Positions 4,972 to 47,644 of a DNA stretch of 50,082 nucleotides are shown in pieces. The stretch is from Candidatus Dojkabacteria bacterium (GTDB taxonomy: Bacteria > Patescibacteriota > Dojkabacteria > SC72): the NCBI GenBank assembly GCA_040767225.1, contig JAXGOY010000006.1:1-50082 (forward strand), written 5' to 3'. Position 1 is the stretch's first letter, and every line of letters starts with the position of its first letter. Made by a program: the position numbers and the translations under genes. The notes beneath the pieces are model-generated. The model was not told the DNA's origin, ran no database searches, and saw only the letters and a list, made by a program, of their open reading frames with translations.

Positions 4972-5062
4972 TAGGTTTAATATATTTAAACAGTTGTGGT
5001 AATGTTTCACTCTTGTGTCAAACATTGTATTAATTATATATTTTAGAATATAATTAGTTATT

Positions 5063-7501: not shown

Positions 7502-7525
7502 GGGGTAAATATAGTCAAAAGTCAT

Positions 7526-7554
7526 TTGACAGGTGTATACATTTCTACTATTAT
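7526..7554 (+). promoter_or_regulatory. Candidate promoter of the giant-protein operon
   Basis: TTGACA at 7526-7531, a 17-nt spacer, and TATTAT at 7549-7554. Confidence 0.45.
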
Positions 7555-7619
7555 TATACTACAGATTTTAAGTACTTAAAAATATTGTTAATCCAAGATA
7601 AAAGTACTATCTGTTAGGT

Positions 7620-15236: not shown

Positions 15237-15237
15237 T

Positions 15238-23918: not shown

Positions 23919-24495
23919 ATGAGAAAAAGAAATAACAAAAAAGATATTGCCGATGATGATATAGCTGAAATGGTAATTAAAGATCCGAATTCATATAAAT
24001 ATATCATTGAGAGATATGAGAAGAAACTTCTTGGATATATACGTAGAATTCTTTTTGTATCAAAAGAAGATGCAGAGGATATCCTTCAAGATGTCTTTAT
24101 TAAAGCATATAAAAATATTAATTCGTACGATAGCAAATACTCATTTTCAAGTTGGATATACAGGATAGCACACAATGAATCAGTATCTTTTTTAAGAAAG
24201 AAAAAAAAAGATAATAGAGTGTAATCAAGATGATGAAATATTTGACAGGATTAGCTCAGATGAGGATATTGAGGATGATTTTCTAAAAGATTTAAAGAAA
24301 AGAGAAGTTAGGAAATTGCTTACAAAATTAAATCCAAAGTACAGGGAGGTTTTGGTTTTAAGATACTTTGAGGATATGGAGTATAATCAGATATCTGATA
24401 TCTTACATACCTCAGTGGGAAATGTTTCTTCGTTGATAGGCAGAGGCAAGAAAGAATTTAAGATGTTAGTAGAAAGATATGGCAGGAATATCTAG
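23919..24495 (+). pseudogene. ECF-type sigma-70 family factor with its reading frame broken at an A9 tract (pseudogene, homopolymer error or slippage-dependent gene)
   Basis: ORF 23919-24224 encodes region 2 (...DILQDVFIKAYKNINSYD...FSSWIYRIAHNESVSFLRKKKK). The +1 frame from the A9 run (24201-24209) to the TAG at 24493-24495 encodes region 4 (...KYREVLVLRYFEDMEYNQISDILHTSVGNVSSLIGRGKKEF). Removing one A joins the two frames. Confidence 0.7.
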
Positions 24496-27740: not shown

Positions 27741-29108
27741 ATGAGTATTCATTCTGAGTATATTGCTCCTAAGGGCTGGAAGCCTAAGAATCCTGATGAG
27801 GACTACCTTATTACAGAGCTTGATATAGAGCTTGCAGATGGTGTACCAGAGGATAAATTTGAGGAGGTGGCAGCAAGCTGTGCTGCTGAAAGCTCAACTG
27901 GTACATGGACTAAGGTTGATGAAGGGAAGCATTCTGGTACAAAGCTTGCTAAAAAGCTTAGAGCTGTTGCATATGATTTGGATCCTAAAACAAAGACATT
28001 TAAGATTGCATACAAAAAAGAAATATTTGAACCTAGCAATATGGCAGGTATATTTGCTGGAATTGCAGGAAATATTGATAGTATGAAGATGATTAAAGCA
28101 TTTAGATTGCTTGATGTAAGATTTCCCAAAAGCCTTGTTCAAAGTTTTCCTGGGCCACAGTTTGGTATTGATGGAGTTCGTGAATTTATGCAGATAGAGA
28201 GAGGACCTTTGCTTTGTACAGTCCCTAAGCCAAAGATAGGGAGAACTGCAAAAGAGCAGGCATATCTTGCTAAAATACTTTTTACTGCTGCAAATGGAGA
28301 GTTTCAGGGTATTAAGGATGATGAAAATCTTACAAGTTTGTATTTTAACAAATTTGAAGATAGATGTAAGCTTGTACATGAAGTACAAAGAGATGTTGAG
28401 CAGAAAAGCGGGAAGAGAAAGATGTATTTGTGTAATGTTACACACTCTGATATAGATGTAATGCTTGATAGGGCTGATATGATTAAGGAAAATGGAGGAA
28501 GATGGATGATGATGGATGTTATAGTTACTGGTTTTGCTGCTGTTCAAACTATGAGAAAGCATAATCCTGGGTTGGCAATACATGCACACAGGGCTATGCA
28601 TGGACTGCTTGATAGGGAATCAGGGGCTGGAGTGTATGATAAAGGGGTTATTGTGGATTTTTCGATGTCTATGGTGGTTATTGCTAAAATCATGCGTCTT
28701 TTGGGCGTAGATTCGCTTCATGGTGGTGCACCAAAGGGTAAGATGGAGAACTATAATGAGCCTATGCTTATACAGCAGGCACTTCAAGAGGATATTACAC
28801 CTGTAACTGATATGACACTTGGTCAGAACTGGTATGGAATGAAAGGAGTATGGCATACTGCATCAGGTGGTCTTCATCCTGGAACAATAGGGGAGTCAAT
28901 AACAAGACTTGGAGAAAACCTCATTGTACAAGCGGGAGGCGGTGTACTTGGTCATCCTTGGGGGATTGAAGCAGGTGTTGAGGCTATGGTACAGGCAAGA
29001 GATATTGCAATGCAAAAAGAGGATTTAAATAAATGGATAATAGAGCATCCTGATAGTGCACTTGCAAAGGCAGCACACTATTGGGGATTTGATCCTAAAT
29101 TTGTGTAA
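27741..29108 (+). CDS. rbcL: Ribulose-1,5-bisphosphate carboxylase/oxygenase large subunit, form II/III- or III-like
   Basis: Motifs seen are AAESSTGTWT, PKPKIGR, GIKDDEN (carbamylated Lys plus metal ligands), HAHRAMHG, SGGLHPG and AGGGVLGHPWG. No small-subunit gene is nearby. Confidence 0.9.
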   Translation: MSIHSEYIAPKGWKPKNPDEDYLITELDIELADGVPEDKFEEVAASCAAESSTGTWTKVDEGKHSGTKLAKKLRAVAYDLDPKTKTFKIAYKKEIFEPSNMAGIFAGIAGNIDSMKMIKAFRLLDVRFPKSLVQSFPGPQFGIDGVREFMQIERGPLLCTVPKPKIGRTAKEQAYLAKILFTAANGEFQGIKDDENLTSLYFNKFEDRCKLVHEVQRDVEQKSGKRKMYLCNVTHSDIDVMLDRADMIKENGGRWMMMDVIVTGFAAVQTMRKHNPGLAIHAHRAMHGLLDRESGAGVYDKGVIVDFSMSMVVIAKIMRLLGVDSLHGGAPKGKMENYNEPMLIQQALQEDITPVTDMTLGQNWYGMKGVWHTASGGLHPGTIGESITRLGENLIVQAGGGVLGHPWGIEAGVEAMVQARDIAMQKEDLNKWIIEHPDSALAKAAHYWGFDPKFV

Positions 29109-33862: not shown

Positions 33863-35476
33863 ATGAATAAAAAGATTACAGTAGATGAAATTAAACCACC
33901 TGATAGAAAGGATGGCTATCCTTCTCAGACACCAAAATGGCTAAGAAGGATTTTAGAATTTATACCAGGTTTTGTTGTTTGGTTCTTTGTTCTTTCCCCC
34001 CTTATATTTGCAATACTAGGGTGGGAGCAGATCTTTGTCTTCTATATCTCCTATCTTATAATCTACTGGGTGTATAGGGGAATTAAATTCGTTGTTGGTG
34101 TTGGTATTGGGGTAAATAGAATGAAAAAAGATATGGATACAGACTTTCTTTCAATGTGTAAAGAGGTAAATGAGAAAAGATTTAATGAGTTAGAGTATAT
34201 ATATTTATGTCCTGTATACAAAGAAGGGCTTGACATCTTAGAGCCGTCATTTGAGGCATGGAGTAAAAGCGATATTGGTGCTGATAGGATACATGTTGTT
34301 GTTGCAATGGAGGAAAAGACTGCAGAAAATCTTCAGATACCAAATTTTAATAAACTTAAGAAGAAGTATGGTAAGAAATTTGCTAGTATGCAGTATTATA
34401 TTCATCCTTCTGGCATAGAAGGAGAGGCTGCAGGTGTTAAAGGTGCCAATATCAATTGGGCCGCTAGAAAATTTGTTGAAAAGCTGGAAAAAGAGGGTAA
34501 AGATATTCATAACTATATGCTTATTACCTGTGATTGTGATTTAAGGCCCCATCCTAAATATCTATCGGCTGTTACTTATAAATATCTAACTGTTGATTTG
34601 CCTGATCAGAAGTATTATACAAGTGCTGTTTATACATTAAATAACAACATATGGAGAGTCCCTGTTTTAATAAGGGTGCAATCTACTATGTTAACTTTAG
34701 TTACACTGCATAACTGGACTACTGAGAAGTATGAGACAATACCATTTTCAAGTGGGATATTCAGTTCAAAGGCATCTTTCTCATCATATGTAGTTAATCT
34801 TAAAACACTAAAGGATGTATATTATTGGGATCCTGAATTGGGTATTGATGATACAACATTCTTCTGGAATGCTGTTATCAGATTTAAAGGTGAGTTTAAA
34901 GGCGAGGAGGTTTATCTTCCTAGTAGTAGTGATGCAGTTGAGAATGAGACTATACTGAAGTCTTACAAAGCATTTTATAGACAGCAGCATAGATGGGGAT
35001 GGGGTATAGTTATTTTTCCTACAACTATAGCGGCTTTAATATATTCTAAAGATATTCCGCTTAATTGGAAATTGCATATGATATTTGCTATTGTTAAAAA
35101 CTATATTTTGTTCTTTACAGTAGTCTATCTCATGACAGTAGGTCTTGATTTACTTGGTGTTTTTAGTAAGAAGTTTACCTATAGCTCTGCATCATACAAT
35201 TTGCCTCAGGCAATGAGTTTTCTACTTGGTTCTTTATTAATATGTAATTTATTTTTAATATATTACAGAAGAAAGCTGATACCTATTCCTAAAGACTGGC
35301 CTTGGTGGAGAAACCTGCTTGATTGTGGTGAGATTGCTCTTATTGCTGTACAGATGCTTACATTTGGATTTATTCCATATCTTCAGGCACATACAGAAAT
35401 GATGCTTGGAAAAGGCTTTAGAAAGAACTTCTATGCTACAGAGAAAGTACAAATTAAAAATAATTCAAAGAGTTAG
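33863..35476 (+). CDS. Processive family-2 glycosyltransferase (cellulose/chitin-synthase-like), polytopic membrane protein
   Basis: The D,D,D,Q(R/Q)xRW signature is present as ITCDCDL..., ...IDDT... and RQQHRWGWG. There are N- and C-terminal TM clusters. Confidence 0.7.
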   Translation: MNKKITVDEIKPPDRKDGYPSQTPKWLRRILEFIPGFVVWFFVLSPLIFAILGWEQIFVFYISYLIIYWVYRGIKFVVGVGIGVNRMKKDMDTDFLSMCKEVNEKRFNELEYIYLCPVYKEGLDILEPSFEAWSKSDIGADRIHVVVAMEEKTAENLQIPNFNKLKKKYGKKFASMQYYIHPSGIEGEAAGVKGANINWAARKFVEKLEKEGKDIHNYMLITCDCDLRPHPKYLSAVTYKYLTVDLPDQKYYTSAVYTLNNNIWRVPVLIRVQSTMLTLVTLHNWTTEKYETIPFSSGIFSSKASFSSYVVNLKTLKDVYYWDPELGIDDTTFFWNAVIRFKGEFKGEEVYLPSSSDAVENETILKSYKAFYRQQHRWGWGIVIFPTTIAALIYSKDIPLNWKLHMIFAIVKNYILFFTVVYLMTVGLDLLGVFSKKFTYSSASYNLPQAMSFLLGSLLICNLFLIYYRRKLIPIPKDWPWWRNLLDCGEIALIAVQMLTFGFIPYLQAHTEMMLGKGFRKNFYATEKVQIKNNSKS

Positions 35477-37053
35477 TGTATTGTATATGAGTTTATTATG
35501 ATGCTATGCAGACCTGCTTGTTCAATAGGGGAAACGGATAGTGTAACAATTTTTTCTCCATTAGATGATACTGCTTGTATTAATGCTAAGTTTGTATCCT
35601 GTAAGACCTTGGTTTTATTATCTCCATCTATATCACAAATGTACATAGTGTTGTCCTCTATATATGAAATATTTAGAGAATTAAATAACCAGTGAATATT
35701 AACTGCATTACTATCTATACTCTTTATTAATTTAGCACCAATATCTACTGTATGATCACCTTCTTCTTTCTTAAATGTGAATACACTAAATCCTTCCTGA
35801 TCTTTAAAGATAAACTTCATATTATTAGGAGAGAATTCTATTAGTTCAGATACATATGGAGATACTAAGTAATATTTTTTAAGTTCAATATCATACCAAT
35901 ATGATGCTAAACTTGTTTTAATGTATATTCCTTTAGCATCTTGATTTACTATAAAATTCTTAATCTCACCAACTGTTTTTGTACTCTCGGGGGAATTTGT
36001 AAAAGGTAGATATTTTCCACTCCCAGTATCTTTCTGATATCTCATAATATAGTCTTGATTCTTTTGGAAGAATAAATCTGAAAGTATTATCTTTGATTCA
36101 GATCCATCCATCTGTGATTGGGTTAGAAGATATCCATTAATATTATTATCTGTTATATATTCAGGGTTTGTCTCTATTTTATAGAAAAAACCTTGTCTAT
36201 CTGTACTCCATATATACCCATTTTGAGGAGTTTTCTTAATTAACAAATATCGTGTTTGTTTATTAATATCAAGTGCAATTATGTCTGTATCAGATTCAAA
36301 CATAAGATACTGACTATTTTGAGCCCAGCTCATTTTGTATGATGTAAGGTCATTAATATTAAGTACTGTTAAAGTATCAAGTGTAGTACCCTTAGTTGCA
36401 TCTAGTATATAGCTGGTTGTGTTATCTGTACTAACAATTGTTAAGACTCCTAATGTGCCATTTGGAGCAAGGAGGATTTCTACCATTGGTTCTTGTATAG
36501 AATCAAAGGTTAGAATAACTCTTGGATTAGTAGATATGTTCCAAAATGGAGTATTAACATCAAATCTGTATAATGTGTACCTATAGGTTAAAACTTCAGG
36601 TATGTATTCATTAACGAGAATGTATATGTAATCCCTATTATTGCTTAGCCAGCTATTTATATATTTTCTGTCCTGTAAAGAGAAGATTTCTTCTTGAGCT
36701 ATCTCTTTCTTTATAAGCCATGGATATACAGGAGTAGATTTCTGTTCTTTAATCTCAACATCCTTTTTCCACTCAACATATCCATTTTTCTTAACTAACA
36801 CACTATGTATTCCTACTGGTAGACTTACACTTTTTGAAGTTCTTCCTTCTTTCTCTCCATTAACATAAAGATCTGCAAGAGAAGGAGATGATTGTACAGT
36901 TAAAACACCTGTTTTTACTAACAGCTGATTAGAGTCGCCAAGCCTCCATCCATTTGCATATAAATATATTGCTACAGCCCCAGTATATACAAATAATGAA
37001 GCTAGTATTGATATTAAAGAAAAGAGTTTTCTGTTGTAACCATTCTTCTCCAT
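35473..37053 (-). CDS. PEGA-domain protein with a probable C-terminal beta-propeller, membrane anchored
   Basis: An N-terminal TM segment is followed by the PEGA-like segment VQSSPSLADLYVNGEKEGRTSKSVSLPVGIHSVLVKKNGYVEWKKDVEI. The remainder is beta-rich and repetitive. The 3' end overlaps the GT2 gene by 4 nt in convergent orientation. Confidence 0.6.
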   Translation of the reverse strand: MEKNGYNRKLFSLISILASLFVYTGAVAIYLYANGWRLGDSNQLLVKTGVLTVQSSPSLADLYVNGEKEGRTSKSVSLPVGIHSVLVKKNGYVEWKKDVEIKEQKSTPVYPWLIKKEIAQEEIFSLQDRKYINSWLSNNRDYIYILVNEYIPEVLTYRYTLYRFDVNTPFWNISTNPRVILTFDSIQEPMVEILLAPNGTLGVLTIVSTDNTTSYILDATKGTTLDTLTVLNINDLTSYKMSWAQNSQYLMFESDTDIIALDINKQTRYLLIKKTPQNGYIWSTDRQGFFYKIETNPEYITDNNINGYLLTQSQMDGSESKIILSDLFFQKNQDYIMRYQKDTGSGKYLPFTNSPESTKTVGEIKNFIVNQDAKGIYIKTSLASYWYDIELKKYYLVSPYVSELIEFSPNNMKFIFKDQEGFSVFTFKKEEGDHTVDIGAKLIKSIDSNAVNIHWLFNSLNISYIEDNTMYICDIDGDNKTKVLQDTNLALIQAVSSNGEKIVTLSVSPIEQAGLHSIIINSYTIH

Positions 37054-37106
37054 GACAAATTTAGTATATCATATCTAGAACTTAATTTTATTGATATAAT
37101 TGGGTT

Positions 37107-38123
37107 ATGTTAGGAAAGAAACTAGGAATAGATCTAGGAACAGCTAATTCTGTAGTGTTTGTACAAGGCGAAGGTATTGCCTTTGTTGAGCCTACTGTTG
37201 TAGCAATTGATGTAAACACATTTAAGGTAATTGCTGTTGGATCTGAAGCTAAAAAAATGATTGGTAAAACACCTGAGAATATTATTGCAAAGAGGCCTTT
37301 AAAAAATGGAGTTATTGCTGATTCAAGAATTACAGAAGCATTGCTTAAATATTTTTTTAATAAAGCATTAGGAAAGTCTAGGTTCTTTAAGCCCGATGTT
37401 GTTATTAGTGTTCCTGCAGGGATTACAACAGTAGAGCAGAGGGCTGTAATAAAGGCTGCAAATAATGCTGGTGCAAGAGAAATTACAATGCTTCCTGAGC
37501 CTCTTTTAGCTGCATTGGGTGCAGGTTTACCTATTGAGACCTCATCGGGGAACATGATTGTAAATTTAGGAGGTGGTACAGCAGAGGTTGCAGTAATATC
37601 TCTTGATGGGATAGTGGAGTATGACTCTTTAAGAATTGCAGGAGATGCAATAAATGAAGCAATAATTAACTATATGAAGAAGAAAAAAGGTATTTTAATA
37701 GGTGAGCAGACTGCAGAAAATATTAAGATAAGGGTAGGATCAGCAATAGAAATAAAAGATCCAAAGAGTATGGAGGTAAGAGGAAGAGATTTTGGTGCAG
37801 GTTTGCCTAAGGCAATAACAGTGGACTCTAATGATGTAGCAACTGCTGTAAAAAGGCCTTTATTAAGCATTATTAATAGTATTAAAGGAGTTCTTGAAAG
37901 AACGCCTCCTGAGCTTTCTGCTGATATTATGGATAGGGGAATGGCAATGACTGGTGGAACATCTAAACTTAGGAATTTAGATAAGTTATTTATAAAAGCT
38001 ATTGGTGTTCCAGCATATGTTGCAGATGAGCCTATGTATTGTGTTGCAAAAGGAACAGGTATTGCGTTAGAGTTAATGGCAGAAGGGGAAAGAAAATTTA
38101 GTTTTAATAGAGCAATTACTTAA
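37107..38123 (+). CDS. mreB: Rod-shape determining actin homolog MreB
   Basis: Motifs LGIDLGTANSVVFV, VISVPAGITTVEQRAV, NLGGGTAEVAVISL and MTGGTSKLRNLDKL are present. Confidence 0.92.
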   Translation: MLGKKLGIDLGTANSVVFVQGEGIAFVEPTVVAIDVNTFKVIAVGSEAKKMIGKTPENIIAKRPLKNGVIADSRITEALLKYFFNKALGKSRFFKPDVVISVPAGITTVEQRAVIKAANNAGAREITMLPEPLLAALGAGLPIETSSGNMIVNLGGGTAEVAVISLDGIVEYDSLRIAGDAINEAIINYMKKKKGILIGEQTAENIKIRVGSAIEIKDPKSMEVRGRDFGAGLPKAITVDSNDVATAVKRPLLSIINSIKGVLERTPPELSADIMDRGMAMTGGTSKLRNLDKLFIKAIGVPAYVADEPMYCVAKGTGIALELMAEGERKFSFNRAIT

Positions 38124-39287
38124 ATGAGTATTTTTTCTAAAACAGGAAAACAAGAGATGAAATTAAGTGAGGTTGTTTCCTTGATGTCAAAGTTAAGACT
38201 CCCCATATCTCTTGTCTTTACACCTGTTAATTTAAAGGAAGAGAAAGAAAAATTTTTAAATTCTGATTTGTATGAGCCTGTATTTAAGTATAGGGGGGTA
38301 AGAAATAATAATGAAGAAATATTAAAAAAGCTTTCTTCTTTAAAGCTGATTACTGATGTGGATCCAAGAATCTCCGACTTCTATATTCAACTAATTGCTT
38401 CAAAAAATGATTCTAATATTCTTATGAATGCAGTAGGAAATAACGAGCTTGTAACAGAGATGTCATATAAAAAGTATGGAGTACCAACTCCACTGCTTTT
38501 TAGAAATGCATCAAGAATTTTGAGAGGAAATACTAGTGGCTACAATACAATTAAGTCTCCTGTTATTAAAGAAAGTGATATTTTCCATTATGAAAAAATA
38601 AGAGAGGTTTTTAATCTTGTCTTTGAGCATTTTGGTTTGAATGATTGGCAGGTTCAAGCTTCATCTAAAATACAGAAAAATGGTGTTAAGGTGGGAGTAA
38701 AAAGTAAATGGGTTATTATGGATCCTAATATAGAGAGGTCTAAATTTAAGTTAAAAAAGACCTTAGTACATGAGGTTGGTACACATGTTTTTAGGTCTGT
38801 AAATGGACTGAATACTAAAATTGAAGCACTTTCAAAACCTAATCTACCAAAATATCTTGATATTGAGGAAGGTTTAGCCATATGGAATGAGTCTGATATG
38901 AACCTTCTTACATTAAAGAATTTTAAAAAGAGTGCTTCTTTTGTTTATGCAATATATATTGGTGAACAGTTGTCATTTAGGCAGTTGTATAATGCACTTT
39001 TAGCTGTTTTCCCTAAAAATACAGCATTTAATATTACATATAGGGTAAAAAGAGGGCTAGGGGATACAAGTTATCCAGGAACATATACAAAAGATATTGT
39101 TTATTTCAGGGGGTTTAAAAAGGTTAAGAAAGCATTAGAAAAAGACAAATCATTATATGAAAAACTTTATGCTGGTAAAATAGATCTTAAACAGTGTGAA
39201 TGGGTAGATGATGGCCTTATACCAAAAGCTAAAATAGTTCCATCTAAGCAGGAGTGGAATGATTTATTTAGGAAGGTGGGAATTTAA
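38124..39287 (+). CDS. DUF1704 / 'QEGLA-motif' / MATCAP-like putative metallocarboxypeptidase
   Basis: The ATG immediately follows the mreB TAA. HEVGTH (nt 38769-38786) and IEEGLAIWNE (EEGLA at 38865-38879) match the HExxxH...(Q/E)EGLA signature of the DUF1704 family. Confidence 0.7.
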   Translation: MSIFSKTGKQEMKLSEVVSLMSKLRLPISLVFTPVNLKEEKEKFLNSDLYEPVFKYRGVRNNNEEILKKLSSLKLITDVDPRISDFYIQLIASKNDSNILMNAVGNNELVTEMSYKKYGVPTPLLFRNASRILRGNTSGYNTIKSPVIKESDIFHYEKIREVFNLVFEHFGLNDWQVQASSKIQKNGVKVGVKSKWVIMDPNIERSKFKLKKTLVHEVGTHVFRSVNGLNTKIEALSKPNLPKYLDIEEGLAIWNESDMNLLTLKNFKKSASFVYAIYIGEQLSFRQLYNALLAVFPKNTAFNITYRVKRGLGDTSYPGTYTKDIVYFRGFKKVKKALEKDKSLYEKLYAGKIDLKQCEWVDDGLIPKAKIVPSKQEWNDLFRKVGI

Positions 39288-40228
39288 TCACTAAAGGCTG
39301 TAATTATGGCTTCAGCAATGTTAACTGGCTCTCCTTTTATTTTTGTCTCATATGCCTTAAATCCAGGATGTAAACTTATTTCCTGTAGTAATGGCTTTCC
39401 ATGCATTTCCATAATGTCAACGGCAATAAAATCTGCTTCTAAAATGCGTGTAACATTCTGCACAAAATTTTTAATCTCCTCTTCGGGATTGTTGTACATA
39501 GAATAAATTCCCTTACTCACGGTCATGAAACTTTTGTCTTTTCTTCTTTTCCATCCTCCTATGATTTCTCCTTTTTTTACAAACACTCTCATATCTGTAT
39601 CACTATCCGATAACTCTTGTATAAACATATTAGAAAGGTCTAAGTTTTTAATGTTATCTTTCTTAAAATCATCTGGAGTATCAATTTTGAAGATATTCTT
39701 TTTTATTAGCTCTTTTCCGTTTATCTCTTCAATTCTATTTTCTCCAGTACAGCTTTTAAGTATTAATGGATATGAATTAAGGATATCTCTTGGAGCCAAA
39801 TAGTTACCATCTGTTCTGTAATATGAGTTAAAGTAGGGGATATTATTTTGATGACAAAACAATGCTAGTGCAATTTTGTTGTAATATGGAAGTTTTTTAA
39901 TAGTTTTACTGTTTTGTACTAATATTTTGTTTTCTGGGTTGTTTATATTATGTTGATCAGTATATTCCACAATGTATCTTTTAAGCTGATATTGTGATTC
40001 GTTATGTAAATCATGTCCTCTGAATATGATATGACTGTATTTTCGTATATCTTCTCCTTTTACTTTTATTACTGTTTCACCATCGATAAATTCAAATTCA
40101 AGCTCATCAAAGTAGGCTAGAGTATGGGGGATATTTTTTTTATTCAATTCTTCCATTATTCTAATATCAGCACTTGCAATTTTTTCTTGTGTTATTCTTT
40201 GTCTTTTATCAAGTATTAAATATCTCAT
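39284..40228 (-). CDS. ATP-grasp ligase D, divergent RimK-like
   Basis: DMRVFVKKGEIIGGWKRR and FIAVDIMEMHGKPLLQEISLHPGF resemble the RimK-type ATP-grasp core. The start overlaps the stop of ligase C (TAATG). Confidence 0.55.
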   Translation of the reverse strand: MRYLILDKRQRITQEKIASADIRIMEELNKKNIPHTLAYFDELEFEFIDGETVIKVKGEDIRKYSHIIFRGHDLHNESQYQLKRYIVEYTDQHNINNPENKILVQNSKTIKKLPYYNKIALALFCHQNNIPYFNSYYRTDGNYLAPRDILNSYPLILKSCTGENRIEEINGKELIKKNIFKIDTPDDFKKDNIKNLDLSNMFIQELSDSDTDMRVFVKKGEIIGGWKRRKDKSFMTVSKGIYSMYNNPEEEIKNFVQNVTRILEADFIAVDIMEMHGKPLLQEISLHPGFKAYETKIKGEPVNIAEAIITAFSD

Positions 40229-41925
40229 TATTTTAATATTTTTATCTTATCTATTAATTTTTTCTTTTTGTATCTCTTTACAATCTTCATATTCTCTTTA
40301 TCATTGCTTAAATCTTTTGTAATACATAGTAGATTAATGTAATCAAATCCAAGACCATGTTCTATTACTTCGTTCCAGTTTCTGTAGTGTAGAATAATGG
40401 TGTCTAGGTAAGCATTACATTTAATTGCTTCTGTAGCTCTCCATCTTGTTAAGTTTCTGTTTACTTCTATACCATTGATTAAGTACCTATCATCAATTAA
40501 CTCTCCTACATTTTCATTTTCTTTGATAATGTTCTTTTTTCTAAGCAGAGTTGATACATCATTATTACTTTGTCCTACTACAACAAACCTTTTACATTTG
40601 TTTTCCTTAAGAAGCTCATCTATGTATATATCTGCAACATATCCACGCTGAGTACCTAGTACTGGATACATATTAAGATATGTTTCAGGCATTGTATTTA
40701 CTTCAAGTATTGCTCCATTACTCTTTGTGAGTGGCTTAGATATATCTTTACACATAATATCAACGCCAAGTGTAAATGCATGCATTGATGTAGCTATAGT
40801 TTCAACAATGCTCTTTATTTCCTTACATACACTATCAGTAAAATCTTGTGTAATACCTCCCTGACTCATACTTGCGACCTTTCTTACATAAACTCTTTGT
40901 CCTTTCTCAGGGATTGAGTCTAATGTAAGATTTTGCTGTGTAAGGTACTTTATTAATGGTTCATCAATCTTTATAGGCTTTAAAATATGTGCAGGATTTT
41001 TAATATCTCTTCTTGGATCTGAATTTTCCTGCTCAATTAGTTCTTTAATACTTTTGCTTCCATCTCCAGTCACAAAAGCAGGGATTCTCTTTGTTGCAAT
41101 TTGAAGCTTTCCATTTATAACAAGGAGCCTGTAATCTTCTCCGTATACCTGCTCTTGAATCATTATTTTTTCTTGCCATGCCTGTCTTACTCTGGTATCT
41201 ATTGCAGCTTTTGCATAATCAAAAGCATCTTGCGCCTTTTGAATAGTATCTATTCCTACAGTAACACCCTTGCCAGCTGTTAAGCCTGTTGGTTTTATAA
41301 CTACAGGTTTTTCATATTTATCCCAGACCTTTTTAATATATGATTTATTTGGGAGTAATTCCCATTTAGGAAGTGTCATACCAAGTCTTTGTAAAAAAGT
41401 ATTAGTTATCCATTTATCCCTTTGTAATTTCTGTGCTATATATGCATCTTTTGTTGAAGATGCAGAGCATGTTATCTGTGATCCTCTCCCGCATCCTAAA
41501 GTGAAGTATCTATTTGCTCCTTTGCCTATTTCTTCTTTTTCTGTAATCATTTCAGCAGATTCAATAATTGAAGGGGTTATTTCAATATTATTTTTCATAC
41601 AAGACTGAAGAAGCGAAATAGTAGACATTGATTTAATTCTTTTATTAATCAAAACATTTATAATTGATTCTTTTGCTTGGTTTAAAGTAATCTCTTGTTT
41701 TGAAAGTTTCTGCAATGTTTCTGCAGATTCTCTCCATAGAAATGGAAGTTTTGAAGATATTGTTAAAAGAGAAGGAGAGATAGTGTATTCATTTATAAAG
41801 ATAGTATGCAGAGATGAAATTGTATCAAGAAGTTCAGTTATATCTCCAATGTTGTTTCCATTTAAAGAAATTTTAACTCTTGATATCTCAGATTCTAGAT
41901 TTAGCCCTTGTATAGTTTGAATCAT
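40228..41925 (-). CDS. ATP-grasp ligase C, similar to the cyanophycin synthetase N and G domains, with a truncated and degenerate M-domain remnant
   Basis: CphA-like strings are LGCGRGSQITCSASSTKDAYIAQKLQRDKWITNTFLQRLGMTLP, VVIKPTGLTAGKGV, DYRLLVINGKLQIATKRIPAFVTGDGSKSIKELIEQENSDPRR and ILEVNTMPE. Where CphA has (I/V)xVTGTNGKTT this protein has FVVVGQSNNDVST. Confidence 0.65.
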   Translation of the reverse strand: MIQTIQGLNLESEISRVKISLNGNNIGDITELLDTISSLHTIFINEYTISPSLLTISSKLPFLWRESAETLQKLSKQEITLNQAKESIINVLINKRIKSMSTISLLQSCMKNNIEITPSIIESAEMITEKEEIGKGANRYFTLGCGRGSQITCSASSTKDAYIAQKLQRDKWITNTFLQRLGMTLPKWELLPNKSYIKKVWDKYEKPVVIKPTGLTAGKGVTVGIDTIQKAQDAFDYAKAAIDTRVRQAWQEKIMIQEQVYGEDYRLLVINGKLQIATKRIPAFVTGDGSKSIKELIEQENSDPRRDIKNPAHILKPIKIDEPLIKYLTQQNLTLDSIPEKGQRVYVRKVASMSQGGITQDFTDSVCKEIKSIVETIATSMHAFTLGVDIMCKDISKPLTKSNGAILEVNTMPETYLNMYPVLGTQRGYVADIYIDELLKENKCKRFVVVGQSNNDVSTLLRKKNIIKENENVGELIDDRYLINGIEVNRNLTRWRATEAIKCNAYLDTIILHYRNWNEVIEHGLGFDYINLLCITKDLSNDKENMKIVKRYKKKKLIDKIKILK

Positions 41926-41932
41926 GCTGTTA

Positions 41933-42907
41933 TTAAATCATTTTAGATATGTACTCTTGAATTGGAATTGCAACTCTAACTACCTCGCCTTCGTCAACTT
42001 TGTAGTGAAGTCTTAGGCCAGGATTATAATTTATTTCATTTACAGCACATTTCACAGGTTTTGTTATATCCTGGGTAATTATATCAACACCTCCAAACTT
42101 TGCTCCTATTGCATGTACTGCATTTACAGCAATATCTTTGTAATATTGATGTGTTTGTGAGGCACACTCCTGAGTAGTTCCTCCTGTTGTAAGATTGCAG
42201 TTGTATCTAAGTATTACCTCTTCATTTTCTTTAGGAATATATTTAAGACTTATACCCTTGTTCTCAAGTCTTTGATATACCTCATTATCAATGCGAATTG
42301 GCTTCATTAAATTCTTTTTTCTTTCTATATTTTTCTTTTTTATCAATGTTTGTATATTATCTTTTCCATTGCCAACTACAAAAGCAGGTTTTCTTCTTAC
42401 AATACCAATTACTCGATTCCCAAGTACTAGAAGTCTATAATTATCACCTTCTACAAACTCCTCACCAATTACTTTATGACTTCCCTTTGATGCACGGAGT
42501 GCTGAATTAAAGGCATTAATAACCTGTTTTTTATTTTGTGGAAGTAGTGATACACCAATTCCACCTAACTGTTGTGAAGGCTTAATTACAATATTTTTAT
42601 ATTCCTTAAAAAACCTTAACGCCTCATCTTTATTGTTTAGTGTAACTTGCTTAGGAACTGGAATGCTAAAGGAAGAAAGTATTTTATTTGTAAGATTCTT
42701 TCTTTTTGCTATTGTTGTACTTGGTGTATTTGTAAGTGGAGTAGCAGTATTAATTATATACCAGTGTTTATTTTCATTTTCAAACTTTGCAAGAAGACCA
42801 TGTACTAAAACAGTATATTTTATATTTAACTCATCTGCTGCTTCTAAATAGTAAGCAAGATGTACATTTCCTGCTTCTTTTAAGTATTGTTCGTATGATT
42901 TTGTCAT
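41933..42907 (-). CDS. ATP-grasp ligase B, cyanophycin synthetase G-domain-like only
   Basis: TATPLTNTPSTTIAKRKNLTNKILSSFSIPVP, VIKPSQQLGGIGV, NYRLLVLGNRVIGIVRRKPAFVVGNGKDNIQTLIKKKN and EINYNPGLRLHYKVDEGEVVRVAIPIQEYI are present. The protein ends where the CphA G domain ends. Confidence 0.65.
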   Translation of the reverse strand: MTKSYEQYLKEAGNVHLAYYLEAADELNIKYTVLVHGLLAKFENENKHWYIINTATPLTNTPSTTIAKRKNLTNKILSSFSIPVPKQVTLNNKDEALRFFKEYKNIVIKPSQQLGGIGVSLLPQNKKQVINAFNSALRASKGSHKVIGEEFVEGDNYRLLVLGNRVIGIVRRKPAFVVGNGKDNIQTLIKKKNIERKKNLMKPIRIDNEVYQRLENKGISLKYIPKENEEVILRYNCNLTTGGTTQECASQTHQYYKDIAVNAVHAIGAKFGGVDIITQDITKPVKCAVNEINYNPGLRLHYKVDEGEVVRVAIPIQEYISKMI

Positions 42908-42921
42908 ATGTTTAGTATATA

Positions 42922-44400
42922 TTAAAATGTATTGGTTGTATCTATTAGGTAACCTGTAAGATCGGTCTTACCAATAATTACTGGCTGAGAGATATCAGAG
43001 ATTTCTGTTGATATGAACTCTGTAATTTTTATCTGATCTTCTATCTTTATAGGGATATCAAATACAGGTCTTACTTTTATTTCTCCATTTTCTACAATTT
43101 TTGCAAGTCTTTTTATACTGCTATTCTTTATTATTTCTTCCTCATTTTTATCAATAAAGTCCTGAGCATCTTTAAGACTTTCAAATTTCTTAGGTATTCC
43201 ATATTTTTCAAACTGTTTATGGTCATTAAAATATCCAATTCTGTTAGCAAGTTTTGAATCAATTCTTGATGTAAGAACTCCTGTATCCATATATGCTTTT
43301 ACAAGCTCTCTTTTACTATCTTTGTATTTTTCAAGTTTAGACCTGTCTGCCTTTTTGTCGTATACATATATTCTTTCAACAATATTAAGAACCTTTCTTC
43401 CGCTTATTGCTTCTATACTTTCTTCTACTTCACCTCCAAAGAGGCTTTTTGCCACTCTTATTCCATGTTTTATACCTTTTATTTTTACATCTTTAACTTT
43501 TTCTAATCTCCATCTCAATCCTGCTTGATTTGCGACCTGAATACCAAGTCCTGGTCTTGCATTTACTTCAAATACGACAGGGCCTTTATCAGCGTCAAGT
43601 GCAATATCTACACCTACATACCCTAAACCTGTCACTTTTTGACATTTTAGGGCTATCTCAAGTAATGTATTCCATTGAGGTATCTGTATACCACTTAAAG
43701 GTTTGTTTTCTTTTAAATCTAATGTTGAATCTATTACTTCATATGTATCACTAATTAAAGAATTAGGCTTCATATGCATAGAGTAGGTGGTTATTCCTGT
43801 TCCTATATCTATTCCTGTACATATTGCGCCTGCATGAAGATTAGCAGTACCATTTGATCTTTTTGTTGGTAATCGTAGCATTGCCATAATGGGAACAAGA
43901 TTAAAGCAGATTATTCTTACATCGGGAACTCCTTTATATGAATATTGCTTAAGTAGTGGGTCTGTCTTTATTCTTTCCTCTATTATTGCGATATCATTTC
44001 CAAAACCCATAGAGAATCTTCCTTCTAATATGCTCTCTATATGAAGTATGATATCCCTTTGTGTCATTACTGTTCCATTAGGTCTTATCCATTCATATTT
44101 TCCTTTTTTCTTGCCATAGAATACAATTATTCCATTTCCTCCTGTCCCTGCATTTGGTTTTATAACAAAGCTTTTGGGAAGACTATCCCAATCAAGGAAT
44201 TCAAGCTGTTTTTTTGTTCTTATTAACTTATATACCTCAGGTGTTTGTATAAGCTCCTTTTTAAGAACTCTTTTAGTGTATATTTTATTATCTGCAATAG
44301 CCTTGGCAGATTGAGAGTTAAATGGCCTTACATATTCCTGATTTCTTCTATTTAGGCCAAGAACTTCCTTCTTTAATTTTATTGGATTATTACTTTTCAT
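42922..44400 (-). CDS. ATP-grasp ligase A, alpha-L-glutamate-ligase-like (RimK-related), fused to a C-terminal retropepsin-like domain
   Basis: LGLNRRNQEYV, ADNKIYTKRVL, VIKPNAGTGGNGI, VRIICFNLVPIMAMLRLPTKRSNGTANLHAGAICTGIDIGTG and GLGYVGVDIALDADKGPVVFEVNARPGLGIQVAN match the 'alpha-L-glutamate ligase-like' family as I recall it. The C-terminal roughly 150 aa carry KAYMDTGVLTSRID and ...PVIIGKTDLTGYLIDT, as in RimK-associated retropepsin-like ('Zn_protease') proteins. Confidence 0.7.
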   Translation of the reverse strand: MKSNNPIKLKKEVLGLNRRNQEYVRPFNSQSAKAIADNKIYTKRVLKKELIQTPEVYKLIRTKKQLEFLDWDSLPKSFVIKPNAGTGGNGIIVFYGKKKGKYEWIRPNGTVMTQRDIILHIESILEGRFSMGFGNDIAIIEERIKTDPLLKQYSYKGVPDVRIICFNLVPIMAMLRLPTKRSNGTANLHAGAICTGIDIGTGITTYSMHMKPNSLISDTYEVIDSTLDLKENKPLSGIQIPQWNTLLEIALKCQKVTGLGYVGVDIALDADKGPVVFEVNARPGLGIQVANQAGLRWRLEKVKDVKIKGIKHGIRVAKSLFGGEVEESIEAISGRKVLNIVERIYVYDKKADRSKLEKYKDSKRELVKAYMDTGVLTSRIDSKLANRIGYFNDHKQFEKYGIPKKFESLKDAQDFIDKNEEEIIKNSSIKRLAKIVENGEIKVRPVFDIPIKIEDQIKITEFISTEISDISQPVIIGKTDLTGYLIDTTNTF

Positions 44401-45055
44401 CCTCTCTTGTAGTAAATCTAAATCTAAAAAGATCCTTTATTCTTAATCCTTTAAAAGTACCAAGTAAAATATTAAATAGTGTTAGGAGAGGAATAATCCA
44501 TAGATTGTTTAATATGTAGTTAGAGATAATGTCCCTTGTTATTACAAACCATCCTGCAATTGCAACTAATATTGTTCCCAGTAGTGTAACAACAGATGTT
44601 TTTATTGACTTCTTAATATATTGTCTTATAAAGAAATCTGATAGTGTAGCTATACATATAAAGGCAAGAGGTGGAATGTTTGACATATTTTCTAAACCTA
44701 AGCCAAAGGTGTCTACTATTACAAAGAAGAGAACTAATACCATTGATAAAATAGTATAATTTGCAGCTATTCTTGTTATATAGTGCATTCTTACTCTTCT
44801 TAATACAGAGTATGAAAGAAGGGAAGTTAGTATAACAACAAAAGTAATTGCTAAACCATATTTTAATCCAGTATATGAATATGCTATAGCTAATATTATT
44901 GGTGCATATATTCCATATGTCTTACTTCCTACTATATATCTTGCAATACTTACAATTGTAGAAACAATACAAACAGATATTAAAAGTTCTAATACAGTCT
45001 GAGATACCCCATGATCAACAATCCATTGTGTAAAAGCTACAGAATTATTATTCAT
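44390..45055 (-). CDS. 7TM membrane protein related to the 7TM module usually fused to inactive transglutaminases (7TM_transglut-like)
   Basis: It is polytopic. ARYIVGSKTYGIYAPIILAIAY and the C-terminal LLGTFKGLRIKDLFRFRF match the GxxTFGxFxP...GRYTGLRLxELxRFR pattern of that family as I recall it. The 3' end overlaps the ligase A start by 11 nt. Confidence 0.6.
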   Translation of the reverse strand: MNNNSVAFTQWIVDHGVSQTVLELLISVCIVSTIVSIARYIVGSKTYGIYAPIILAIAYSYTGLKYGLAITFVVILTSLLSYSVLRRVRMHYITRIAANYTILSMVLVLFFVIVDTFGLGLENMSNIPPLAFICIATLSDFFIRQYIKKSIKTSVVTLLGTILVAIAGWFVITRDIISNYILNNLWIIPLLTLFNILLGTFKGLRIKDLFRFRFTTREDEK

Positions 45056-45089: not shown

Positions 45090-45119
45090 ATTATACTTTG
45101 TAAAGCATATTATTGTCGA
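45090..45119 (-). promoter_or_regulatory. Candidate promoter of the 7TM/ATP-grasp operon
   Basis: On the minus strand, TCGACA (45119-45114) is followed by an 18-nt spacer and TATAAT (45095-45090). Its -35 box overlaps the -35-like TTGTCG of the divergent plus-strand promoter. Confidence 0.4.
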
Positions 45120-45258: not shown

Positions 45259-46653
45259 ATGAGCTTAAGTAAAAACTTAGAGTACCTAAGAAAAAGCAAG
45301 AAAATGTCTCAAGAAGATCTTGCTTTTAAATTAGGTGTGTCAAGGCAGGCAGTATCTAAATGGGAATCTGGTGCTGCATATCCTGAAACAGAGAAAATAA
45401 TTGCAATATGTAAGCTTTTTGATTGTTCACTTGATGAACTTATGAAAGATGATATTGCAGAGTTAAGAGAAGATGAGAAGAGAAGATATACATTTAATGA
45501 CTTAATTGAAGAGGTCTCATCTCTTTTACAAAAGACTGTAGACATATTTAATCAAATGGATAGAAAAACAAGATTTAGATTTTTCTTTGAGCTTGTAGTA
45601 GCATGTGTTGTTATTTTCTTTGTTGTAAAGATACCTTTTAATTATATTGCTTCACTTGGTTACAATGTGTTTTTTGCAATAGGGGGAGATACAGCTCAAG
45701 TACTTAAAGCTATATGGAGATTTTTAGTAGATATTACATATTTTATTACTTCATTACTAATATTTATTTCTGTTTATAAAGCAAAATTTCTTAATATTGC
45801 GAATTTTAGTAAGAAGTCTACCCAAACCCAAATAGAAGGAGAGAAAGAAGAAAAGGAGGAAGGTAATAAAGAAGAGAAAATTGTTAGACATGATTTTGGT
45901 GTATTTTCTTTTTTAGGAAAAGTATTTGTTTTTTGTTTAAAGGTTTTTGTAGCATTTTTATCTCTCTTTATACTTTTCTATATGCTTGTTGCCGTTGCAG
46001 GCTTAGTGATTGTTATATCTTGGATGTTTGATGGTGTGTTTCTTTTTAGTTTAGTTCTTTTTGCATTATCATTTATTCTTCTTTCTACTATTATCATTTA
46101 TGTAATTTACAATTTTATAATTAATAGAAGAAGTAAGTGGAAAAAGGTTTTTACATTTCTTTTAATATCCTTTATTGGTCTTGGTGTAAGTATGGGAGTA
46201 GGGGCTATTGAAATGAAAGAGTTTACATTTACTAGTTCTCCTCGTCAGGATATAGTTCTGGATAAAAAGAGTGAGACTTTTGAGATGACAGATTCTTTAA
46301 TAATTGAAAATTATGGGTATGAGATTGTATATATTGAAGATGAGAAGATGCAGGATATGGTAAGGGTAGAAGTTGCATATTACGATGGTTTTGAGGATGT
46401 AGAAATAGTTCAAAATGGAAACAGTATATTTATTAATTCAAGGCAAGAAAACTTTTCTATTCCTAAAATTTATGAGATGTTAATAAAAGATTTAAAGGAG
46501 AAGGAAATTCATGTTGATTACCGCTATCTTTCAGATCTTTATGTAACAGTGTATACAAGCAAAGAGAATATTGAGAAGATACAGAACAATATTGAGCAAC
46601 AGCAGACAAAAGATGAGTATGATGTTGGTGTACTAGAAGAAAAGCCACTTTAA
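45259..46653 (+). CDS. XRE-family helix-turn-helix protein fused to a multi-pass membrane region and an extracytoplasmic C-terminal domain
   Basis: The N-terminal LRKSKKMSQEDLAFKLGVSRQAVSKWESGAAYPETEKIIAICKLFDCSLDELM is an HTH_3. It is followed by several hydrophobic helices, an acidic EGEKEEKEEGNKEEK linker and a C-terminal domain of about 150 aa. Confidence 0.75.
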   Translation: MSLSKNLEYLRKSKKMSQEDLAFKLGVSRQAVSKWESGAAYPETEKIIAICKLFDCSLDELMKDDIAELREDEKRRYTFNDLIEEVSSLLQKTVDIFNQMDRKTRFRFFFELVVACVVIFFVVKIPFNYIASLGYNVFFAIGGDTAQVLKAIWRFLVDITYFITSLLIFISVYKAKFLNIANFSKKSTQTQIEGEKEEKEEGNKEEKIVRHDFGVFSFLGKVFVFCLKVFVAFLSLFILFYMLVAVAGLVIVISWMFDGVFLFSLVLFALSFILLSTIIIYVIYNFIINRRSKWKKVFTFLLISFIGLGVSMGVGAIEMKEFTFTSSPRQDIVLDKKSETFEMTDSLIIENYGYEIVYIEDEKMQDMVRVEVAYYDGFEDVEIVQNGNSIFINSRQENFSIPKIYEMLIKDLKEKEIHVDYRYLSDLYVTVYTSKENIEKIQNNIEQQQTKDEYDVGVLEEKPL

Positions 46654-46688: not shown

Positions 46689-47093
46689 TTATTCAAGCTC
46701 TACTTTTGCACCTGCTTCTTCAAATTTAGCCTTAATAGCCTCTGCATCTTCTTTCTTTACTCCTTCTTTTACAACCTTAGGAGCAGCTTCTACAAGGTCC
46801 TTAGCCTCTTTAAGACCAAGTTCTGTAATTTCCCTTACAACTTTAATTACACCTATTTTGTTTGCACCTGCATCTTTGAGGACAATATTGAATACAGATT
46901 TCTCAACTTCCTCTGGTGCTGCTTCTGCTGCTGGAGCTGCTACTGCAACTGGTGCTGCTGCACTAACTCCAAATTTGTCTTCCATTACTTTAACTAAGTC
47001 TGCAAGTTCTAAAACAGTCATTTTTTCGACTATTTCAATAACTTTCTGTGCATTCTCACTTAATTTTGGAAGATCTTTTTTCTCTTCTGCCAT
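46689..47093 (-). CDS. rplL: 50S ribosomal protein L7/L12
   Basis: ...[21 protein letters not shown]..., the Ala/Pro hinge and ...[22 protein letters not shown]...AGAKVELE are present. Confidence 0.95.
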
Positions 47094-47113
47094 TTTAATA
47101 TATGTTAAATAAT

Positions 47114-47644
47114 TTAATTAATATTAGCTTTCTTTTCAGAAATACCATTCAAAAGAATAGTAAAGCCCCTTATATTTCCAGTAATTGCATTCATAAATCC
47201 TGTTAATGGTGCATTCATTGTTCCTACGAGTCTTGAAAGTAGCACTTCTCTTGAAGGTATGTCTGCCAATTGCATAACTCTTTCATCTGTTAAAAACTCC
47301 TCTTGATATACTCCACATTTAGGATTTAATAACTCCATTTCTTTCTGTATCTTCTTTATTAATTTTGCAGGTTGTGTAGGATCTTCTTGAAAGGATATTA
47401 CTCCAGTAGCTCCATCAAATTCTTGTAACTGTAATGGTTGATTGCTTTCTTGTAATGCAATTTTAAATATATTGTTTTTAACTACAGTATAGCTGGAGTT
47501 TACATTTCTTAAATCTCTTTTGAGTGTAGTTATAGTTGCTGTATCTATTTTATCTGAGCTTACTAAGATATATCCAGAACTATTTTTTATCATTTCTTTA
47601 TATATCTTAAGTAACTCTTCTTTTTGTGTACGAGTTTTAGACAT
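47114..47644 (-). CDS. rplJ: 50S ribosomal protein L10
   Basis: It occupies the conserved position upstream of rplL and has an L10-like N-terminus ([44 protein letters not shown]). Confidence 0.9.

Follow-up and report, generated by a model that had tools for sequence, protein, structure and literature searches.

A 387-amino-acid (aa) protein, encoded on the forward strand at positions 38124-39287 of a 50,082-nucleotide (nt) stretch from a Candidatus Dojkabacteria bacterium (assembly GCA_040767225.1, contig JAXGOY010000006.1; the whole stretch is called the window in the following), is, judged by profile and predicted fold, a genuine member of the MATCAP/DUF1704 family (PF08014) of zinc metallopeptidases. 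Its gene directly follows mreB and meets, tail to tail, an operon that encodes four ATP-grasp ligases (A to D) and a 7TM membrane protein. We consider it probable that the protein acts as a cytoplasmic zinc carboxypeptidase, i.e., as the C-terminal trimming or turnover partner of this adjacent ligase system. The original prediction had proposed a ligation and trimming cycle on MreB or another envelope or cytoskeletal protein, in parallel to the tubulin code, and had kept the trimming of the ligase operon's product as a fallback; it is the fallback that turns out to be the better-supported reading.

The tie between the peptidase and the ATP-grasp 'writers', already part of the original proposal, is borne out by a conserved adjacency of their genes, by the persistence of this adjacency in a sister clade, and by proteins in which an ATPgrasp_ST ligase is fused to a MATCAP domain (ATPgrasp_ST::MATCAP).

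Identity of the peptidase

The open reading frame (ORF) of 387 codons with its motifs HEVGTH (residues 216-221) and EEGLA (residues 248-252) was confirmed. A search with hidden Markov models (HMMs) places its product in PF08014 with 106.5 bits against a gathering cut-off of 27, such that the family assignment, until then based on the motifs, stands. The alignment spans residues 49-362 and profile positions 9-329 of 365. When compared by phmmer to human MATCAP (PDB 7z5g), the protein is matched with E=2.9e-10, whereby HEVGTH is placed on HEIGTH and EEGLA on EEGLA; a KRG..DTS.PG..KD.VY block is common to both proteins. We also checked the His/Glu residues of the two motifs in an alignment of 46 diverse homologues with identities down to 25%. 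H216, E217, H221 and E249 are invariant, as is G250. The first four are thus the predicted metal-binding/catalytic residues, with E249 of the EEGLA motif as the putative third metal ligand.

The AlphaFold2 model of the protein has a mean predicted local distance difference test (pLDDT) value of 95.7. Using this model in a Foldseek search against the PDB, the five best matches are all human MATCAP (E=2e-11 to 8e-11, 7z5g on top, probability 1.00, template modelling scores (TM-scores) 0.52/0.60), and the next match follows at E=7e-3. The gene family has already been named by annotation pipelines. With regard to the proteobacterial QEGLA subfamily (TIGR02421), the protein reaches 123.7 bits vs. 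a cut-off of 338.65, i.e., it is related to but not a member of this subfamily. Inspecting the N-terminus by eye, no signal peptide-like hydrophobic stretch or transmembrane segment is obvious.

Gene junctions

The upstream gene mreB (338 aa, 37107-38123, plus strand) matches PF06723 with 428 bits, and its product passes the curated NCBIfam cut-offs of both PRK13927 (429.8 bits, cut-off 293) and TIGR00904 (420.6 bits, cut-off 365.75). Neither mreC nor mreD follows mreB here. On re-reading, the mreB TAA (38121-38123) stands directly before the ATG at 38124, as the original prediction had it. Since a conserved M-x-I-F-x-K motif at the N-terminus of the peptidase, kept in about 80 orthologues, aligns to this abutting ATG, we take it as the true start. 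The claim that the peptidase gene is co-transcribed with mreB is supported as very likely.

A perfect TATAAT (37094-37099) stops 7 nt short of the mreB ATG. This position suggests that the mreB transcript has little or no leader.

At its other end, the TAA of the peptidase gene (39285-39287) overlaps via the palindrome TTAA with the stop (39284-39286) of the minus-strand ORF 39284-40228, i.e., of ligase D; this reading, too, was confirmed. The convergent overlap comprises 4 nt, and an orthologue of ligase D is the neighbour in 71 loci. Terminator-like sites, assessed by a consensus scan, show no excess (3 found vs. 3.9 expected from shuffled sequence).

The gene order itself is strongly conserved. 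The exact zero-gap and stop/stop junctions, however, are typical of this compact genome, in which neighbouring genes usually overlap at their stops or lie 10-30 nt apart. We considered whether the stop/stop overlap might be a special regulatory device and rejected the idea, since the unrelated pair of a GT2 gene (plus strand) and a PEGA gene (minus strand) has the same overlap. That is, the stops of this pair overlap by 4 nt in the window (35473-35476), and the two convergent genes overlap or abut in 18/18 loci that have both.

The convergent ligase operon

Judged by its domain content, the convergent operon is an expanded Rlo-like module that combines a 7TM protein, an RloC-type ATP-grasp::retropepsin protein, two ligases that resemble the G domain of cyanophycin synthetase, and a RimK-like ligase. 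All its genes are on the minus strand. The first one (44390-45055) encodes the 221-aa 7TM membrane protein, which matches PF14402 (7TM_transglut, E=1.2e-17) and NF052267 (RloB, E=2e-9). It covers PF14402 positions 52-245 and only positions 311-504 of 508 of the RloB profile, i.e., its counterpart in RloB is the C-terminal half with the 7TM region. A transglutaminase-like domain is absent, given that the Pfam and NCBIfam profile matches reach the 7TM part only. The 7TM gene overlaps the following gene of ligase A by 11 nt (44390-44400) on the same strand, and this arrangement is kept in relatives.

Ligase A (492 aa, 42922-44400) combines an RloC-type ATPgrasp_ST domain (about residues 1-305) with a C-terminal retropepsin-like domain (about residues 350-492, nt 42925-43353). 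It scores 218.8 bits for PF14397 (cut-off 31.4) and 286.3 bits for TIGR02291, just under the cut-off of 314.2. Residues 365-492 match the retropepsin models RloA3 (E=5e-5) and RloA2 (E=9e-4), and a DTG motif is found within the retropepsin-like domain, visible as MDTGVLTS in the translation. Ligase B (324 aa, 41933-42907) resembles the cyanophycin synthetase G domain and GshB (TIGR02068 E=1.7e-62; PDB 7lgm E=8e-37). Ligase C (565 aa, 40228-41925) matches the NCBIfam model PRK14016 with E=8.6e-76, and its best PDB match is cyanophycin synthase 7lg5 (E=4e-43, residues 141-490). Its residues 137-537 align to positions 181-573 of 871 of the cyanophycin profile with 255.7 bits vs. a cut-off of 877. 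Ligase D (314 aa, 39284-40228) is RimK-like (PF08443 RimK E=2e-08; TIGR00768 E=2e-10). RimK models are matched by ligase D as well as by the C-terminal part of ligase A, with scores far under the RimK family cut-offs.

Within the operon, the genes are spaced by -11 to 14 nt, too little to accommodate an ORF for a small precursor peptide. The best sigma-70-like promoter match of the region, obtained by consensus scan only, is found at 45090-45119 on the minus strand (TCGACA, 18 nt, TATAAT; 11/12), 35 nt upstream of the 7TM start. Such sites are not enriched across the region, and we regard this one as a candidate promoter of the ligase operon.

Some further observations concern the surroundings of the operon. 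In the window, an XRE-type HTH gene (45259-46653, plus strand) sits between the operon and rplL, rplJ (46689-47644). In most Dojkabacteria, the ligase operon follows rplL on one strand after about 110-200 nt, such that read-through from the rplJL operon is possible. Despite an inversion of rplJL in the sister clade, the 7TM gene is still its neighbour there. These observations cover the loci L004, L005, L173 and L175-L177. In the basal Dojkabacteria locus L082, a glutamate dehydrogenase gene (15565-16809, minus strand; ELFV_dehydrog, E=1e-77) lies inside the ATP-grasp operon, which hints at glutamate as ligase substrate.

Gene order within Dojkabacteria

We sampled 80 Dojkabacteria genomes, each representing a species; their peptidases share 50-93% identity with that of the window. 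The close homologues are annotated as Candidatus Dojkabacteria (WS6, Patescibacteria), and a profile scan of genome contigs with a 16-sequence peptidase alignment returned Dojkabacteria only. More distant relatives were taken from a search of representative proteins, from single look-ups and from a metagenome scan.

Every Dojkabacteria locus with enough flank shows the same order, i.e., the PEGA gene on the minus strand, mreB and the MATCAP gene on the plus strand, and the genes of ligases D, C, B and A and of the 7TM protein on the minus strand, with rplL-rplJ usually next. No more than 40 nt separate mreB from the MATCAP gene in 67/79 relatives, with a gap of exactly 0 in only a few, and the stops of the MATCAP and ligase D genes are at most 10 nt apart in 46/71. 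In five basal Dojkabacteria genomes, mreB and the peptidase gene are separated by a further gene that encodes 410-500 aa. In L082, the one that was scanned, this gene matches Wzy_C; the other four are similar to the L082 gene by blastp.

In some Dojkabacteria, extra plus-strand genes are found between the peptidase gene and the ligase operon (L048 11177-14990, L052 11215-19455, L047 9247-12000); they include a 763-aa 7TM-type histidine kinase.

Relatives beyond the class and fusion proteins

A search of 1.84 billion representative proteins resulted in 1809 relatives of the peptidase. At 40-44% identity (L086/L087, L174, L176, L177), mreB is still upstream of the peptidase gene and ATP-grasp genes are nearby; L177, for example, shows the gene string tRNA synthetase, mreB, Wzy_C, MATCAP. 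At 36% identity follows a sister clade without mreB at the locus, in which the peptidase gene has kept the ATPgrasp_ST and 7TM genes as neighbours. In L173, all five operon orthologues surround the peptidase gene in a rearranged order; in L175, only the ATPgrasp_ST and 7TM genes are left beside it. In a rough neighbour-joining tree, the clade of L173/L175 is sister to the mreB-linked clade. Taken together with the gene content of these loci, the link to the ligases looks ancestral and the link to mreB derived.

Fusion proteins also link the peptidase to the ligases. Proteins of about 780 aa with an N-terminal ATPgrasp_ST and a C-terminal MATCAP domain (P0141, P0154, P0171, P0188, P0219) are found in other phyla. 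A metagenome scan seeded with distant relatives provided 80 loci, of which 18 encode such fusions, 10 of these 18 with a (PKD-)7TM_transglut gene immediately upstream. In L088, a single operon combines two further ATP-grasps, a PKD-7TM_transglut protein and an ATPgrasp_ST::MATCAP fusion. Depending on the lineage, the domain joined to the RloC-type ligase is thus a retropepsin or a MATCAP domain, and we regard this domain architecture as strong evidence that the peptidases serve the ligase.

We also inspected proteobacterial QEGLA loci (L169 5119-7110, L170 4421-7161, L171 5782-7943). In Vibrio sp. HDW18, the QEGLA protein is fused to an FGase-like (PF05013) domain, in S. meliloti pSymB an overlapping FGase gene precedes the QEGLA gene, and in Legionella adelaidensis the QEGLA protein is encoded beside murI. 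In Photobacterium damselae at low salinity, the QEGLA protein RS17025 is induced 27-fold and the adjacent 'GshB' ATP-grasp RS17020 38-fold, and rimK is induced, too (PMC10308900). Across these family contexts, glutamate or acidic-peptide chemistry is the recurring theme, as far as can be judged from the neighbouring genes. Among the distant relatives, the contig of L172 shows a MATCAP-like gene 1.7-4 kb upstream of ftsQ-ftsA-ftsZ on the same strand (3962-10334).

On the other hand, several observations weigh against a general tie of the peptidase to the ligases. The whole block from the RuBisCO homologue, proS and uvrA to rplJL is syntenic across Dojkabacteria, such that adjacency within the class is, taken alone, weak evidence. 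None of the 62 stand-alone metagenome relatives has an ATPgrasp_ST gene within 10 kb, when searched with HMMs built from the Dojkabacteria ligases, and only 2-4 have RimK-like neighbours. The ligase link is thus not universal in the family. The neighbours of the stand-alone relatives are rather housekeeping genes (RsmB/F methyltransferase, RNase HII, PTH2, CorA, M48), and given PTH2 and RIO1 among them, these relatives are probably mostly archaeal. L172 (37% identity) has neither ligase nor mreB in its 10.9-kb contig. Finally, L086/L087 keep the trio of PEGA, mreB and MATCAP genes with different upstream genes, and their ligase genes are 7 kb off.

The housekeeping neighbours and the block-wide synteny would fit a general carboxypeptidase for peptide recycling or protein C-terminal processing, whose adjacencies are by-products of a gene-dense, rarely rearranging genome; the customary stop/stop overlaps and gaps of 10-30 nt are in accordance with this. 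Still, synteny does not explain the recurrent ATPgrasp_ST fusions, the peptidase keeps company with the ligase even after the rearrangements in L173 and L175, and QEGLA and ATP-grasp genes are co-induced in Photobacterium. We therefore consider a mere housekeeping role rather unlikely.

The PEGA-mreB-MATCAP trio of L086/L087 points to yet another explanation, namely an envelope or cell-shape module (PEGA, MreB, Wzy-like) in which the peptidase processes an envelope-related peptide while the ligase adjacency is inherited synteny. In the window, the PEGA-domain protein (526 aa, 35473-37053, minus strand; PF08308 PEGA, E=5e-12) is encoded divergently from mreB, separated by a 53-nt spacer (37054-37106), and the PEGA gene adjoins mreB in the Dojkabacteria loci as well as in L086/L087. 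The Wzy_C-like membrane protein between mreB and MATCAP in basal lineages and the murI neighbour of the Legionella QEGLA protein would also fit. Against it, the PEGA gene is on the opposite strand, the peptidase shows no obvious signal peptide or membrane segment at its inspected N-terminus, the sister clade lacks mreB, and the ATPgrasp_ST::MATCAP fusions exist. Such an envelope function thus seems quite unlikely to us.

MreB as a candidate substrate

MATCAP of the DUF1704 family removes the C-terminal Tyr of alpha-tubulin, and the opposing enzyme TTL as well as the TTLL glutamylases have ATP-grasp-type folds. The original prediction had seen in this a parallel to the tubulin code. In such a cytoskeleton code, the ATP-grasps would extend MreB, or another component of the shape machinery, at its C-terminus, and the added residues would be taken off again by the MATCAP-like enzyme. 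With regard to gene order, the adjacency of mreB and the DUF1704 gene does recur in Dojkabacteria and their nearest relatives, while it is missing at the other peptidase-ligase loci. That is, the co-directional pair with its mostly short gap is kept at 40-44% identity (L086, L174, L176, L177), in L086 even despite changed flanks, whereas mreB is beside the peptidase gene in none of L088, L173 and L175 and in 0/80 metagenome loci. Furthermore, the Wzy_C-like gene splits the pair in the 5 basal Dojkabacteria loci and in L177, and a class-Ib aminoacyl-tRNA synthetase gene is found equally tight (at most 40 nt) upstream of mreB in 33/79 genomes.

The MreB sequences themselves do not resemble known substrates of RimK, TTLL or MATCAP. 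Among 79 orthologues, no conserved acidic C-terminal tail with a defined terminal residue was found; the tails are variable and basic or neutral (...FNRDFRR, ...FNKSIT, ...FNRAIT), and their last residue is mostly R (40 orthologues), T (15), N (9) or S (8). A poly-acidic C-terminal tail is also not present in any of the window proteins. The cell-shape defects of P. aeruginosa rlo mutants (PMC12239564) as well as the fact that MATCAP and TTL form a true eraser/writer pair in eukaryotes would fit a cytoskeleton code. Given the lineage-confined link and the tails, we nevertheless rate it as very unlikely. MreB as substrate of a ligation and trimming cycle is thus unsupported, the lineage-specific adjacency being what remains in its favour. 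The same holds for the wider version, in which the four ligases and two peptidases write and erase a C-terminal tail on MreB or an envelope/shape partner as a bacterial counterpart of the tubulin code; we deem it highly improbable.

L7/L12, whose gene neighbours the ligase operon in all lineages, was considered as another substrate and rejected, since its C-terminus varies (VELA, VELE, VELK...) with no conserved Glu.

Proposed mechanism

The G domain of cyanophycin synthase extends the C-terminal carboxylate of a poly-amino-acid. By homology, the ligases of the window would use ATP to activate a carboxylate and to append amino acids, probably acidic ones (Glu or Asp). The four ligases might be organised at the membrane by the 7TM protein and would produce an acidic oligo- or poly-amino-acid that is free or attached to a primer. 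Both peptidases, i.e., the retropepsin domain and the MATCAP-like enzyme, would then shorten or recycle this product, with the latter presumably taking off single residues from the C-terminus.

What the sequence shows is the place of the peptidase gene in what is very likely one transcription unit with mreB, its 3' end facing that of the ligase operon. Being made together with the constitutive growth gene mreB, the peptidase could hold the ligase products in check; the link to mreB would then be an expression arrangement in a compact genome. P. aeruginosa strains that have lost the RloA retropepsins are rescued when rloB or rloC is deleted as well (PMC12239564), which implies that the ligase product must be processed. 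A constitutive hydrolase encoded with a growth gene fits these genetics, i.e., that unprocessed ligase product is harmful.

Other features of the window

The window encodes a RuBisCO large-chain homologue (27741-29108; PF00016, E=6e-59), syntenic across Dojkabacteria, and, for a small bacterial genome, a full-length serpin (3736-4971; PF00079, 359 bits). At 7620-18066, a giant ORF of 2538 aa is directly followed by a 942-aa ORF without Pfam match. A 101-aa ORF (23919-24224) matches sigma-70 region 2 only and may be part of a truncated or split sigma factor gene.

Novelty and implications

Literature searches combining DUF1704 with ATP-grasp, Dojkabacteria with MreB, and KIAA0895L with prokaryotic homologues found nothing relevant in the library searched. 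What is already known is the gene family, as named by the annotation pipelines, and the Rlo core. Three aspects appear to be new. First, an expanded cytoplasmic variant with four ligases and two peptidases is found throughout Dojkabacteria. Second, peptidases of the MATCAP family are repeatedly coupled to RloC-type ligases, in some cases as fusions. Third, the peptidase gene is embedded in the mreB unit across the class. This third aspect is a real, lineage-specific curiosity and may reflect coupling to growth, not a substrate relationship.

To our knowledge, MATCAP-family enzymes have been studied only as trimmers of tubulin tails. Bacterial DUF1704 proteins gain a concrete candidate function here, i.e., trimming of a ligase product, and the picture of Rlo systems gains a second class of processing enzyme. 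In Pseudomonas, such ATP-grasp/7TM systems are important for cell shape as well as for tolerance of osmotic stress and resistance to antibiotics. Because of the ATPgrasp_ST::MATCAP fusions, a descent of the eukaryotic pairing of TTL-type writer and MATCAP eraser from an already coupled prokaryotic ligase-peptidase module is better supported than the tubulin-code reading of the window. This suggests that the writer/eraser logic of the tubulin code predates eukaryotes.

Comparison with known systems

A close arrangement is RloABC of Pseudomonas aeruginosa (PMC12239564). As here, a single operon provides a membrane protein of the 7TM_transglut family, a retropepsin-like peptidase and an ATP-grasp of the ATPgrasp_ST/TIGR02291 type, the one of the window scoring just under the TIGR02291 cut-off. 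The two differ in several respects: RloB has a transglutaminase-like domain, which the window 7TM protein lacks; RloA is a separate secreted protein with signal peptide, whereas the retropepsin-like domain of the window is fused to a cytoplasmic ligase; and the window adds three ATP-grasp ligases as well as a MATCAP-family metallopeptidase to the Rlo set. Furthermore, the Rlo host belongs to the Proteobacteria and the window host to a Patescibacteria lineage.

RimK and RimB, which attach and trim poly-alpha-glutamate on ribosomal protein S6, provide a model in which an ATP-grasp ligase has its own peptidase for cutting back the C-terminal addition, as proposed here. No gene of the RimK substrate S6 is found near the window operon, though. 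In the system of CphA1 and cyanophycinase, a hydrolase is likewise encoded near the ligase, and ligases B and C are closest to the G domain of CphA1. However, CphA1 has a Mur-ligase-like M domain that ligases B and C lack, and they score 210-256 bits for the CphA-type NCBIfam models with cut-offs of 850-877. Cyanophycinase is moreover a serine hydrolase, whereas the hydrolase of the window is a metallopeptidase.

Among relatives of the peptidase itself, the Photobacterium QEGLA protein is of the same Pfam family and adjoins the ATP-grasp annotated 'GshB'. Those proteobacterial QEGLA proteins that we examined carry or adjoin an FGase-like domain or are encoded beside murI, and they fall outside the clade of the window protein in the tree. 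The human proteins MATCAP/TMCP1 (KIAA0895L) and TMCP2 (KIAA0895) share family (PF08014) and fold with the window protein, and HExxxH and EEG(L)A of human MATCAP align residue for residue. TMCP1 and TMCP2 take residues off acidic C-terminal tails and deglutamylate (PMC10499314). The identity to human MATCAP is only 17-18% over the structural alignment (TM-scores 0.52 and 0.60), and human MATCAP acts on tubulin, whereas the Dojkabacteria host has no tubulin. Finally, the ligase partners differ: eukaryotic MATCAP is paired with TTL/TTLL, while the window peptidase is accompanied by RimK-like, RloC-like and cyanophycin-like ATP-grasps.

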